Source of the DNA: an uncultured Chthonomonadaceae bacterium
Lineage (GTDB): Bacteria; Armatimonadota; Chthonomonadetes; Chthonomonadales; Chthonomonadaceae
Length of the DNA: 64,000 nucleotides
Assembly (NCBI GenBank): GCA_963835065.1
Contig: CAWIEK010000053.1
Span: forward strand, 384,001-448,000
Reading direction: 5' to 3'
In this document: piece after piece, positions 17,703 to 51,321 of the stretch
Layout: each line of letters opens with the position of its first letter
How positions within the stretch are numbered: the first letter of the stretch is position 1
Program-made: the position numbers and the translations under genes
Notes under the pieces: model-generated
What the model saw: the letters and a program-made list of their open reading frames with translations, nothing else
Databases searched by the model: none
Told to the model about the DNA's origin: nothing

Positions 17703-18227
17703 GTGACGCAATATCAGCAGGCGGTTTCCAATCAGGTGTCGTTTACGATCTCGGAACAGGAGTACCAGAAATCTATGTGGTTGCACATGAAGCAAAAGAA
17801 CTGGCGCGTGGCAGCCATTCTCTTGACCGCGTTGGTCGGCTTCTTTGCGATTGTAGATGGCGTTGCTACGGCCTTGCCGATGGGCATATTCTTTGCGCTG
17901 TATCTGCTGTTCTTGATGTGGGTGGTACGGCGCAACATCAGCAAAATCTACCGCAGCATGCCGCAACTGCACGGCGAACAGACCATTCAGTTCAATGAGG
18001 AGGGGCTTGTCTGGCACAACGCTTACGCGCTTTCCAAAGTGAAGTGGCAGTTGTTCCAAAAGTTCGACAGCGACGAAGACCTGTACCTGCTGTATCAGGC
18101 GCCACATCTGTTCAACATGATTCCGCGCAGCGCGTTTCACAGCGAAGAGCAGGAAGAAGCGTTTCGGATGCTGCTGGAAATCAATGTCAGGCCCGCCACA
18201 AAGCGCCGTCCGAAACGCGCCCGGTAA
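17703..18227 (+). CDS. YcxB-like membrane protein
   Basis: RBS AGGAGG plus GTG; two TM helices then FNEEGL...KW..F...DLYLLY...MIPRSAF. Confidence 0.75.
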   Translation: MTQYQQAVSNQVSFTISEQEYQKSMWLHMKQKNWRVAAILLTALVGFFAIVDGVATALPMGIFFALYLLFLMWVVRRNISKIYRSMPQLHGEQTIQFNEEGLVWHNAYALSKVKWQLFQKFDSDEDLYLLYQAPHLFNMIPRSAFHSEEQEEAFRMLLEINVRPATKRRPKRAR

Positions 18228-18235
18228 TTCCAATT

Positions 18236-18808
18236 ATGTCCCGACCACCTTCCCGCCCCGGCCAAAAACGGCCTGTTCCGGCCAAACCCAAACGCCCCGC
18301 GCCCTCCCTGCCGCGCGTGGGCGTAACGTCTGTTGATCCGCAAACGGAGCAGGCCGTCAATCGCCTGTTTATGCGCCTGATACGCCGCGTCGCGCTCACT
18401 TGCGGCATCATGCTGGCGACAGGTTGGCTCGTTACATGGGCGGCGAAATCCTCCCACGCCGTCAGCGTTCCCATCATCTACTATGCCATTCTGCTTGGCG
18501 TCGCCATCGTGTATTATCGCGGCGTGGAGCAGGTGTTTGCGGATGTGCGCCAACTTGGGATTGAGAAGCTGAAGCAGCGACGGTACGCGGATGCCGTGTT
18601 CGCGCTGGAAAACTTTCATCGCCTGGGCAACATGAACCGTGACCGTACGGGCGAAGCGCACTACTATCTGATGCAGGCATATCGGAGCATGGGACAGACG
18701 GAGAAAGCAACCGAAGTGCGCGACTGGCTGCAAAAGCATCGCGCCAAATCGGAATGGGCCACGCGCTCTGCGCAGGAAACCCCGGCCGCTTCTATTACAC
18801 AAGGATAA
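18236..18808 (+). CDS. hypothetical membrane protein with C-terminal TPR-like helices
   Basis: Two TM segments, then GEAHYYLMQAYRSMGQTEKA. Confidence 0.65.
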   Translation: MSRPPSRPGQKRPVPAKPKRPAPSLPRVGVTSVDPQTEQAVNRLFMRLIRRVALTCGIMLATGWLVTWAAKSSHAVSVPIIYYAILLGVAIVYYRGVEQVFADVRQLGIEKLKQRRYADAVFALENFHRLGNMNRDRTGEAHYYLMQAYRSMGQTEKATEVRDWLQKHRAKSEWATRSAQETPAASITQG

Positions 18809-19024
18809 GTCATTCAGTTAAGGGGCCGTAAATCTATAACTGTCCGAACCAGCGGGAAGCCCAGCTCTTGCCTACGAGAAGTCCTGCAAACCCATCGGAA
18901 CAGCGGCAAGCAGGAAAAGGTTAGCCGCGAATACACGCGAATGAACGCAAATATCGGAAAACACGAAACAGCGAATGGAAGACGATCTTGTGTTCGCTGT
19001 TCGTTTTGCAGAGCGAACGCTTCT

Positions 19025-19190
19025 AAAAAGGAAATATGTAGAGAGATCGTCGAAATCTTGGCAATACAGCGCTTCCAGCCCGATGTCTCGTTGTGTCAGA
19101 TTGTAGGAGTGAGGCATCGTGACCTCGGAAGCGTCAGGGCGAACGGGAGGAGTGGAACATGGGCCTGTACCTCCTTTGCTGAATAGTAGA
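19025..19190 (-). ncRNA. candidate structured small RNA with mini-ORF (MFHSSRSP*, 19134-19160), copy 1
   Basis: Near-identical core shared with 50762-50921; SD AAAGGAGGT 8 nt before ATG; predicted rod-like fold; ECF-like promoter upstream. Confidence 0.6.
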
Positions 19191-19202
19191 CACTTGTACT
19201 AT

Positions 19203-19231
19203 TTAGACAGGAGGAATGGGGCAAAAGGTTC
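19203..19231 (-). promoter_or_regulatory. putative ECF-sigma promoter for copy 1
   Basis: Minus strand GAACCT-N17-GTCTAA with an A-rich upstream tract homologous to copy 2. Confidence 0.55.
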
Positions 19232-19324
19232 GCTGTTTTCGGGTTATTTTGCCCTTTTTTTTCTGTTTTTTTCGGGATTGTTTTGGCGGGAGGGTTGCTG
19301 TTGGCATTATGTGCCGTCGCACTG

Positions 19325-19744
19325 ATGACGAAAATGAAGATGGCGGCAAAAGACAGGCCCAAGGTTAAACTGGAATGTCTGCGTCTCCTGACGACATTAA
19401 GACTCGACCCGGCAAAGTCAAAGCTTATCGGAGGGTTTGTTGACGGCTACCTGCGCTTGACGCCGGCAGAGACTCAACGCTATGCGCGTGAGTTCGCCAA
19501 ACTTACGGAGACAGAGAAGGAAACCACGATGGAAATCGTCACGAGTTGGGAAAAAACAGGGATGGAGCGCATCGTTTTGCATCTGTTGCACAACCGACTT
19601 GGAGATGTGCCGAAAACTTTAGAAAAGCGCATCTCCAATTTGTCGGCAAATCAACTGGAAAGCCTCAGCGAAACCATTTTCGATCTAAAAACGCCTAATG
19701 ATCTCGAACAGTGGCTATCACAACACGAGTTAGCGATGCGCTAA
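19325..19744 (+). pseudogene. 5'-truncated Rpn-like / DUF4351 domain protein
   Basis: LMTKMKMAAKDRPKVKLECLRLLTTLRLDPAK...IVTSWEKTG...LHNRLGDVP...QLESLSETIFDL; the N-terminal nuclease-like half is absent. Confidence 0.7.
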
Positions 19745-48956: not shown

Positions 48957-50675
48957 ATGTTTCCCTTTGCGTTTGTGTTCTCGTGCCTGTCACCGTTTCT
49001 GCCGCTGACAACTTCGCCGCCTGCGGATACACCCGTCGCCCCTGGTAAAACGGAAGCGCAAAAAGATACTCCCGCCCTGCCGCAGCGGAATACAGGCGGT
49101 ACTCCTGTTTCTTCCGTTGCGCCTGTGCTTCCCACGCTGCCTGATGCGCAGGCGAACGGGCAATCGTCTCCACCTGCACAAGAGACTTCACGCCCTGCCC
49201 CTGCCTCGCAAACGGCTTCGCAGGGCGCGGGGCCGGTATCGCCCGCTTATTATCAGCCCGGTTCTCCCACGCCCCCGCCCCTCAACCGCGCGGGTTATCA
49301 GGTATTCGGAACCCTGCGATTGCGCGAGGAAGATTACAACTGGTTCCCCGCCAACAAAGCGAACGGCGCGTACACGTTTTTGGGCGGGTTTGCGCGCGTC
49401 GGTGTCAGCCGGGCGACGCGCACCGAAGATTTTGTCGCCGAGTTCGCCGCGCCGTTTCTGGCCGGACTGCCGACGCAGGCGATTGCGTCCGGCTCGGCTG
49501 GCTCGTTGGGACAGGGCGCGAGTTATGAGGGGGCGAACCACAATCAGGTGGCGAGTTTTTATCTCAAGCAGGGCTATGTCCGTTTCAAGAACGCGGGCAA
49601 TCCGGCCAATACGGTTCGCCTGGGACGCTTTGAAGCGACGGACGGCCTGGAAACGGTCAGCGCCGATCCCTCCCTGGCGTGGATCAAGCAAAATCGCATC
49701 GGGCAGCGACTAATCAGCCCTTCCATTTATACCAACATCGGGCGCAGTTTCGACGGCATACAGGTGGTCAACAACACGCGCCTGCGCAACATCACTGCGG
49801 CGTTTCTGCTGCCCACGCGGGGCAACTATGACCTGAACGGGTGGGATACGCTTTCCGATATTCGGCTCGGCTACCTTGCGGCAACGTATCCGCAACCCGG
49901 CCCTCATGCCAGTGGCGAGGGCCGCTTGTTCGCCCTGCTGTACAATGACAGCCGCGACGGCGGGGTGGTCAAGGTGGACAATCGCCCGCTGACGAACGCG
50001 CAAAACCAGCCTGTTCGCGCCGGGGATAAGGGCGCCATTACGTTTCTCACGCTTGGCGGCAACTACGAGCGCGTGGAACCGTTGGGAAACGGCAAAGTGG
50101 ACGGCATGGTGTGGGGCGCGGGGCAGATGGGACGGTGGGGTTCGCTGCGGCACGGGGCGTTCGCGTTTGTAGCGGAAGCCGGGTATCAGCCTCCTCTTCC
50201 CGCTCTCAAGCCCTGGCTGCGCGTCGGCTACAACTACTACAGCGGCGACGGCAATGCCAACGACGCCATTCACGGCACGTTTACCGCCCCGGAATACACG
50301 TCGCGCACGTTTGCCCGCTTCCCCTTTTTCAATCAGGCCAATCTGGAAGATATTTTCGCGCAACTGCTGCTGCGTCCTACTCCCCGCGTTTCCATTCGCG
50401 CCGACGCGCATGGCCTGCGCCTTGCCCAGAGTCAGGACTTGTGGTATTCGGGCAACGGCGCGTATGAAATCCACAACTTCGGCTTTACCGGCCGTCCAAG
50501 CAACGGCCACAGCAATCTCGCCAATCTGTACGACATCAGCGTAGATTATCAAGCCTATCATGCGCTCACCCTGTCCCTGTACTTCGCGTATGCCGACGGC
50601 GGCGACGTAATCTCCGCCATCTATCGCGGCCACGAAGCCACGTTCGCGTATGCCGAGGCAACGTACCATTTTTGA
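48957..50675 (+). CDS. alginate export (AlgE-like) outer-membrane porin family protein
   Basis: YLKQGYV, VRLGRFE, RSFDG, YSGDGN....HGTF, C-terminal YHF. Confidence 0.7.
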   Translation: MFPFAFVFSCLSPFLPLTTSPPADTPVAPGKTEAQKDTPALPQRNTGGTPVSSVAPVLPTLPDAQANGQSSPPAQETSRPAPASQTASQGAGPVSPAYYQPGSPTPPPLNRAGYQVFGTLRLREEDYNWFPANKANGAYTFLGGFARVGVSRATRTEDFVAEFAAPFLAGLPTQAIASGSAGSLGQGASYEGANHNQVASFYLKQGYVRFKNAGNPANTVRLGRFEATDGLETVSADPSLAWIKQNRIGQRLISPSIYTNIGRSFDGIQVVNNTRLRNITAAFLLPTRGNYDLNGWDTLSDIRLGYLAATYPQPGPHASGEGRLFALLYNDSRDGGVVKVDNRPLTNAQNQPVRAGDKGAITFLTLGGNYERVEPLGNGKVDGMVWGAGQMGRWGSLRHGAFAFVAEAGYQPPLPALKPWLRVGYNYYSGDGNANDAIHGTFTAPEYTSRTFARFPFFNQANLEDIFAQLLLRPTPRVSIRADAHGLRLAQSQDLWYSGNGAYEIHNFGFTGRPSNGHSNLANLYDISVDYQAYHALTLSLYFAYADGGDVISAIYRGHEATFAYAEATYHF

Positions 50676-50761
50676 GGGGAGCATTGAGCGTTGAGCGTTG
50701 AGCGTTGAGGGTAATGCAGCCGCCGAACGTCGGGGCGGCAGTGCTTTGAGCGCATGGGAAA

Positions 50762-51010
50762 AGAAAAGAGATATGTAGAGAGATCGTCGAAATCTTGGCA
50801 ATACAGCGCTTCCAGCACGAGGTCTCGTTGTGTCTGGTTGTAGGAGTTAGAGGCGTCGTGACCTCCGAAGCGTCAGGGCGAACGGGGAGAGTGACCAGGC
50901 ATCTTCTTGCACCTCCCTTCTGGGTTAGATTGTTGAGAGTGGAGAAGAACTCCGAACTTTCAATGGCCCGCCACCTAGCTAGTTAGCAGCCTTTATTAAG
51001 TAGACATTCA
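50762..51010 (-). ncRNA. candidate structured small RNA with mini-ORF (MPGHSPRSP*, 50873-50902), copy 2
   Basis: Homologous to 19025-19190; SD AAGGGAGGT 8 nt before ATG; GC hairpin at ~50716-50743 downstream. Confidence 0.6.
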
Positions 51011-51017
51011 TGTAGTA

Positions 51018-51046
51018 ATAGACCGCGTATGCAGGGAAAAGGTTTC
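51018..51046 (-). promoter_or_regulatory. putative ECF-sigma promoter for copy 2
   Basis: Minus strand GAAACC-N17-GTCTAT. Confidence 0.5.
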
Positions 51047-51321
51047 TATTTTCCAGGCTGTTTGAAACTTTTTTGTCTGTTTTTTCTGGAAGTTGTTGAG
51101 GTGGTCGTAAGCCCTGTTGTGTCCCTACGTTTGGGAACTTAGAGCCTATCCCAACTGGCCGGGTATTGAAAATACCCGGCAGGAAAGTGCAAGCGTCCTG
51201 CGGACGCGAATTCCCGCCTATCGGCTTCAACATTCCACAATTCTCAACTTCGTCCAGCCTTACAAGCCTGAGCGGTTGTCGCTATAATGTACGCATCCGG
51301 CAACAAGGCCGTGACGTGCCA

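Follow-up and report, generated by a model that had tools for sequence, protein, structure and literature searches.

We found that the 64,000-nucleotide stretch of DNA analysed here (the window) carries two members of a dispersed family of predicted small RNA genes, and that the 8.0-Mb, 92% complete assembly holding the window (G000) contains 162 copies with a full-length core, each scoring above 80 bits (blastn and nhmmer). We propose, with a probability of roughly 40%, that the gene specifies an RNA, induced by stress, which retains a ribosome at termination and exposes a 3' motif to that ribosome or to a partner. The original prediction had recognised a near-identical pair of units with an invariant block; a covariance model trained on 31 copies and the sequence agree on this pair (model matches at 19033-19150 and 50770-50889, both on the minus strand, with nothing else in the window above 11 bits), but the description as a two-copy unit gives way to the larger family. 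The dispersal of the 162 copies also rules out the pair as attL/attR or as the ends of a 31.7-kb island.

Of two congeners, G002 yielded at least 47 model matches, one of them weak, from 53 candidates scored, and G001 yielded 13 copies on 6 Mb with the covariance model, giving a twelvefold range of copy number within the genus (13 to 162). The model found no member of the family in 65 other genomes of the order and none in 150 other genomes of the phylum, the latter under strict filters with 24 candidates scored per genome; the genomes matching it, among the matches listed, are Chthonomonadaceae. The twelvefold difference and the lack of a match in the 65 genomes indicate that the element is dispensable for close relatives. 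Viral contigs gave no match, and metagenome scans gave none in one case and 17 in another, none above 14 bits. Among the matches listed, one from the genome scan (L066) proved to be a chance match within a coding gene, and another (L073) is a true homologue in single copy. The contig of L073 is labelled as another phylum, its element abuts genes of two other lineages, and the assembly looks chimeric. As predicted, the unit could not be assigned to a known family: Rfam gave no match at the gathering score in the window and none up to an E value of 10 in 18850-19350, and a suggested 6S-like rod finds no support, given this result and the lack of any long rod. A literature search, with most subscription papers and supplements outside its scope, returned no description of such a gene.

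The unit consists, in order, of an A-rich tract, promoter, leader, Shine-Dalgarno (SD) sequence, mini-ORF, 7-nt spacer, hairpin H1, A/C-rich linker, rod H2, TACATA and pyrimidine tail (Table 1), with a predicted transcript of 146 to 318 nt (median, 217 nt). Both window copies have GGAGGT exactly 8 nt before the ATG, the two predicted mini-ORFs, the AAC-GTCTA promoter-like motif with its A-rich tract and, between them, a 2-nt indel after the stop, all as first read. The peptide of copy 2 is of the type seen in copies within an ISAs1-type transposon shell, and shell ends were not detected at copy 2. Beside copy 1, an Rpn-like gene fragment ending in DUF4351 (19283-19744, plus strand) appears to be 5'-truncated, since it is homologous to a paralogue only as far as the upstream edge of the copy. 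Other small repeats, namely REP-like palindromes, 7-nt microsatellites and cargo-less ISAzo13 miniature inverted-repeat elements (MITEs) of 78-108 bp, are abundant in intergenic DNA, both in the window (18922-18960, 50684-50709 and 51150-51210) and genome-wide.

Table 1. Features of the two copies in the window, with predicted elements named as such
Feature	Positions	Strand	Basis
Copy 1, A-rich tract, UP-element-like, upstream of promoter	19240-19285	-	Sequence; A in 67-88% of copies here
Copy 1, ECF-type -35, GAAC with T-tract	19224-19231	-	Same motif before ECF sigma orthologues
Copy 1, ECF-type -10, GTCTA, 19 nt after AAC	19204-19208	-	Sequence, motif among copies
Copy 1, second -10-like motif GTCTACTAT, predicted 5' leader	19183-19191	-	Present in 157/162 copies
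Copy 1, Shine-Dalgarno GGAGGT, predicted pairing with the ORF's own CCUCC	19169-19174	-	Sequence, folding
Copy 1, mini-ORF MFHSSRSP-stop, ATG at 19160	19134-19160	-	Coding pattern among copies
Copy 1, hairpin H1, beginning 7 nt past the stop	19111-19126	-	Compensatory change, spacing
Copy 1, rod H2, imperfect, with AGCGCTGYATTGCCA invariant at the apex (19059-19073)	19041-19089	-	Covariation, conservation
Copy 1, TACATA (conserved) and pyrimidine tail as the predicted 3' end, no canonical terminator	19025-19040	-	
Copy 1, decayed right terminal repeat of ISAzo13-type shell, then TTA	18822-18846	-	
Copy 2, ECF-type promoter AAACCTTTT ... GTCTA, 18 nt after AAC	51019-51045	-	
Copy 2, Shine-Dalgarno GGAGGT (50911-50916) and mini-ORF MPGHSPRSP-stop (50873-50902, ATG at 50902)	50873-50916	-	
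Copy 2, H1 (50850-50865), linker, H2 (50778-50826, invariant 50796-50810), TACATA	50772-50865	-	

Promoters of at least 14 bits were located at 151 of the 162 copies and in 2 of 300 random intergenic windows, a comparison that is circular in that the matrix was trained on the copies; the spacer between AAC and GTCTA is 18 nt in 117 copies and 19 nt in 33. Independently of the copies, the motif GTAACCT..-N-CGTC[TA]A[A] (CGTCTAA/CGTCAAA-type) was found upstream of the ECF sigma gene in 13 of 14 fetched orthologue loci. The candidate sigma gene lies on a G000 contig (C69:22510-23280) and is present in 36 of 42 Chthonomonadaceae genomes. The promoter of the copies matches the bipartite motif of this sigma's own promoter, and transcription of the copies by the candidate sigma is predicted. 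For Bacillus, the available text of PMC5758882 reports ECF promoters with AAC, a T-tract and CGTC. Since 157 of 171 strong matches of the copy-trained matrix in G000 fall at copies, the family may be the main output of the sigma in this genome. A loose genome-wide promoter pattern gave 57 matches as against 79 in a reversed control, and we therefore claim no regulon. A second motif, GTCTAC-TA, present in 157 copies and following the first at 10-16 nt in 156 of these, is a candidate for a sigma pause element or a housekeeping -10.

The concentration of strong promoter matches at copies would also suit a mobile promoter or antisense cassette placing its neighbours under ECF control, as with Correia elements, or a sink for ECF holoenzyme. 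Hairpins had been thought to follow the units, but no canonical intrinsic terminator was found behind either copy, and the downstream gene is convergent, often less than 100 nt away, in 99 of 162 copies, all of which would favour such a cassette. The convergent neighbours foreseen in the window are there (18044-18808 and 48957-50675, both plus strand), but the statement that no gene follows is not general, because 62 copies have a downstream gene on their own strand and only one has none. We nevertheless hold a promoter cassette or sink to be very improbable, since the neighbouring genes are unrelated between copies and mostly not common to congeners, and since the ORF, H1 and invariant loop would be superfluous. 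These unrelated neighbours, together with a preference for antiparallel placement in tandem gene contexts (62 antiparallel, 24 parallel; p = 5e-5), also indicate that the unit is not a leader.

Transcription of the family is barely supported by the RNA evidence, which consists of contigs from one RNA run: one 197-nt contig of a soil metatranscriptome matches 19049-19106, continues H1-like and is of fitting size, the contig being unstranded and a DNA origin possible. A second read comparison gave matches to other repeats only. In 4 of 23 loci (C49:86054 of G000, listed as L191, and L190, L192 and L196), including those of G000 and G001 and excluding G002, the ECF motif was also seen upstream of efp, at a distance of 167-215 nt; the efp product, EF-P, relieves proline stalling. 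The sole promoter-and-leader-only remnant seen (G000, C54:109077-109190) lies 17 kb from an intact copy, and its leader continues into an inverted duplicate of the end of a convergent gene.

An SD sequence and ATG are present in 160 of the 162 copies (two have no start), and in 155 of these 160 the ATG and the conserved stop share a frame, with 24, 27, 30 or 33 nt between them (8-11 codons), the other five being shifted; congener ORFs reach in-frame lengths of 45-48 nt. The last codon is CCN in all 162 G000 copies, followed by TGA in 156 and TAA in six, and all four proline codons and all three stops occur among the 39 of 43 congener copies that were anchored, two G002 copies ending, by eye, in Thr or Ser instead of Pro. 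The Pro-stop was sought within 20 nt of H1, which favours its detection; its position is nonetheless fixed. Because the proline codons and stops vary synonymously, the mini-ORF is likely translated. Part of the apparent peptide conservation may instead reflect RNA pairing, and initiation may be rare, since the C-rich codons of the ORF pair with the SD sequence (mean pairing of 0.85, against 0.75 in synonymous shuffles, with 113 of 143 above the shuffles). The residue at position -3 is Leu in 9 and His in 6 of 106 distinct ORFs, so the ending is not a true RAPP motif. A longer core peptide (the 'DLVLEALYCQDFDD' frame) was rejected, as frames are not common to copies and stops vary. The suggestion of a translated paralogous sRNA family with an ECF promoter and a stalling-type mini-ORF was thus borne out in part, by the coding pattern, the match to a conserved sigma self-promoter and the lack of an Rfam match.

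The stop lies 7 nt from H1 in 157 of 162 copies in G000, 25 of 28 in G002 and 11 of 11 anchored copies in G001, and this length is kept though the last three bases of the spacer are highly variable. H1 in turn stands 36-40 nt from the invariant motif, whereas the leader between promoter and SD varies sixfold (28-184 nt) and often contains simple repeats. Fixed distances downstream of a variable leader point to a geometric constraint relative to the ribosome. With a stop codon in the A site, a further 7 nt brings H1 to the mRNA entrance. Recoding signals (SECIS elements and stimulators of readthrough or frameshifting) likewise place a hairpin a fixed short distance 3' of a stop, but here TGA, TAA and TAG all vary and linker indels break the downstream frame. 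A selenocysteine or readthrough cassette was rejected on the TAA and TAG variants and because linker indels of 1-4 nt leave no common frame.

We found compensatory changes in both helices: an A-U to U-A change in H1 in 4 of 31 aligned copies, from one G001 subfamily, and several changes in H2. Two-sided changes occurred in 17 cells, a number reached by 0 of 500 shuffles, which ignore relatedness, and 2 of the 20 tested pairs are poorly supported. The structured RNA tail of the original prediction is upheld by this covariation but not by fold stability, which is no greater than that of shuffles (z = -0.62 in copy 1, and a mean of +0.2 over 21 cores); with a thermodynamically ordinary fold, it is covariation that argues for the structure. 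The apical 15-mer (AGCGCTGYATTGCCA) shows no mismatch in any of the 161 non-redundant copies of G000 or the 43 of the congeners (204/204). Private mutations numbered 0 of 2184 at apical sites and 5 of 7020 at other rod sites (p = 0.6), and with such scarcity over the whole rod, selection on individual copies is inseparable from fast gene conversion. A switch of conformation involving the bases after the stop and the invariant motif was discarded, being present in some folds only and not kept in congeners.

It is typical of a protein-bound RNA to have an invariant unpaired motif on a rod of low stability, high dosage fits titration, and ECF-driven sRNAs are known, at least from the parts of the literature available to us. 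The RNA could accordingly be a protected sponge or trans regulator, translated only for stabilisation against Rho or nucleases, whose loop would titrate some protein or base-pair with other RNAs. We regard this as unlikely, since a free sponge would have no need of the fixed 7-nt and 36-40-nt distances, and since no long base-pairing target was seen: in G000 the exact 14-mer and its complement are confined to the copies, with five scattered one-mismatch sites elsewhere.

The best interpretation of the never-varying Pro-stop, 7-nt spacer, H1, linker length and apical loop is that they form a single complex with a bound ribosome. On this proposal of a ribosome-holding RNA, the family-wide ECF stress sigma would transcribe the stand-alone gene; the SD hairpin would open and a ribosome would initiate on the 8-11-codon ORF; termination would be slowed at the Pro-stop, as known Pro-stop behaviour suggests; H1 would sit at the mRNA entrance of the paused ribosome; and the invariant loop would engage the ribosome or a bound partner. 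Ribosomes would thereby be parked under stress, and the output of 162 promoters could hold many of them. ISAs1- and ISAzo13-type shells, each having captured the gene on its own, may have increased its dosage, and the parts may be kept intact by gene conversion among copies and by selection. A broader claim, advanced tentatively and in our view doubtful, is that the family represents a new class of bacterial RNA machine, that is, a sigma-driven ribosome-parking RNA that recruits its own ribosome, freezes it at a Pro-stop and locks it with an RNA domain, at a dose of 13 to 162 set through two domesticated shells, with the copies spaced.

Transposon ends were found around some of the copies. An ISAs1-type shell (subfamily B), with repeats starting CAGGG, is present at both ends of 16 copies and at one end of 17 more, forming a MITE of roughly 460 bp; in 9 of the 16 two-ended copies the 10-bp target duplications match at 9 or 10 of 10 bases. 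The same terminal repeats flank ISAs1 transposase genes in G002, which gave eight transposase matches, while none was found in G000 or G001. An ISAzo13-type shell (subfamily A) has both ends in 5 copies, the right end only in 28 and the left end only in 7, left-end detection giving 11 matches in the wrong orientation as a control; G000 also holds two 1361-bp autonomous elements with ISAzo13 ends, of which the one scanned encodes PF07592. Judged by these ends, subsets of the copies are members of ISAs1- and ISAzo13-type MITE families. The whole family cannot be described as a MITE, because 93 of the 162 copies have neither shell, there are no fixed ends and the core is more conserved than the shell ends, which are about 70-80% identical pairwise. 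Downstream flank homology stops 4 to 141 nt out, barring six duplicated copies. An apparent circular permutation, with a motif both upstream and downstream, proved to be the ISAzo13 terminal repeats. A match to IS or MITE ends had been named as grounds for abandoning the prediction; such ends are present in subsets, but they explain the spread of the unit and not its nature, since the cargo is common to two unrelated shells, is shell-less in those 93 copies and occurs in 13 copies in G001 without any shell ends.

Comparison of G000 with G002 placed 9 of 30 copies of G002 in the vicinity of one in G000. In seven pairs with matching flanks the orthologue ranked 3rd to 149th of 162 by similarity, a same-genome paralogue being closer in six, and all 10 tested site pairs showed four haplotypes, showing that sites persist while their interiors are overwritten. 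Clean paralogous sites without the element were few, one having an 85-nt replaced stretch and one a diverged 59-nt duplication. This overwriting, the amplification by two unrelated IS shells, the spread from 13 to 162 copies in one genus and the copy 2 site, which in G002 is occupied by other DNA, would all be expected of a selfish cargo, in which the RNA or its DNA motif makes a copy the favoured donor in transposition or conversion with little gain to the host. The chance of this is in our judgement small, though real: shell ends decay while the cargo stays intact, copies that have lost both shells cannot transpose, no ISAs1 transposase was found in the 92% complete G000, the only common reverse transcriptase belongs to a type XIII retron with its own ncRNAs, and a host stress sigma and a Pro-stop ORF would serve no evident purpose in DNA mobility.

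The placement of the copies is one of short-range exclusion and not of regular spacing. In G000, 4 of 105 gaps are shorter than 10 kb where 22.6 were expected (0 of 2000 simulations), the depletion holding for both orientations (3/58 and 1/47); G002 has no gap below 13 kb where 3.1 were expected (P = 0.03, from an incomplete list of copies), and five other repeat families show no short-gap depletion, with low power in three. Contig-end bias is small (16 versus 10 copies within 3.5 kb). Additive dosage alone leaves this avoidance of close neighbours unexplained. It could follow if the unit were a local chromosome element acting in cis, such as a domain boundary, a nascent-RNA tether or a protein-binding site, of which close copies would be redundant or harmful. 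We consider this improbable: gaps extend to 217 kb in G000, 13 copies serve 6 Mb in G001, there is neither a lattice nor a strand bias with GC skew, and target immunity or instability of near repeats could yield the same pattern.

Several known systems share parts of this architecture. TnaC ends in a Pro-stop, and a 2002 paper by Hayes is said, by its title, to concern slowed termination at this sequence. All 162 copies share the Pro-stop ending with TnaC-type leaders but not the conserved downstream regulated operon. PMC11890864, in its available part, treats TnaC and PepNL and describes the slowing of termination at the Pro-stop; these peptides, and ApdA and ApdP of the RAPP/RxPP type (PMC10951233, in part), resemble the mini-ORF in their short length, constrained last residues (R-S/P-P) and stop after proline. 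According to the same portion of PMC10951233, RAPP/RxPP arrest places RxP at the P site and, at the A site, a codon for Pro (or Gly), upstream of a protein-localisation gene, whereas here a stop follows RxP and the neighbours are unrelated. The family is also like tmRNA, SRP RNA and SprF1 (PMC8938821, available in part) in comprising a small RNA for which an action on ribosomes during stress is proposed, and like tmRNA in combining a short ORF with structured domains; it differs in having no tRNA-like domain, Rfam match or toxin partner, in loading a ribosome by its own SD sequence and in its amplification by transposon shells. The genome's own tmRNA is located elsewhere in G000.

As to the vehicle, MITEs with promoters or sRNAs, such as Correia of Neisseria and QMITE1/2 of Coxiella, are, in the accessible text of the review PMC10969869, likewise short, non-autonomous, IS-derived repeats with target duplications, many intergenic copies and an internal promoter, and sRNA output is reported for QMITE; that text mentions no ISAs1 or ISAzo13 case. 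Unlike those elements, the present cargo lies in two unrelated IS families, is shell-less in most G000 copies and throughout G001, is more conserved than its ends, carries an ECF rather than a sigma70-like promoter and includes an ORF under coding-type constraint. We rate the vehicle as of a known kind and the cargo architecture as new. If our reading of a ribosome-holding RNA is true, translation would be damped under stress by an RNA and not by hibernation proteins or toxins, and transposon shells would have multiplied the dosage of a complete small-RNA gene more than tenfold within a genus, with concerted evolution maintaining it, as is known for rRNA operons and was not found for a 200-nt gene in our literature search. 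Approximately 200 natural variants offer a ready mutational scan of the stop-hairpin geometry, the Pro-stop and the invariant loop, and the step from candidate sigma gene to promoter is testable in a laboratory host. Even as selfish DNA, a host stress promoter with a translated ORF would be an unusual MITE cargo.

A retron as source of, or substrate relation to, the element was rejected, because the type XIII reverse transcriptase has its own conserved ncRNA-like repeats upstream of its operon, the model (R1) scored at most 10 bits in seven retron loci and the enzyme also occurs in four genomes of the family without the element. One retron ncRNA copy of G000 is identical to the apical loop over 11 nt, but congeners do not preserve this identity. 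Upstream of the retron operon of G000 (C50:59700-60500; L160:1216-2004) lie three msr-msd-like ncRNA units, arranged in tandem, diverged and differing in their long hairpins, and similar units precede the retron in G001 (two; L161:1621-2336), G002 (at least two; L158) and G020 (one seen). In addition, a reverse transcriptase beside a cas1-like gene in G000 (C49:681400-683500; L125) is probably part of an RNA-spacer-acquiring CRISPR module, and the same genome contains a 16-gene tRNA array (C49:430274-432286) and a predicted tRNA with a TTA anticodon (C42:1858-1953).
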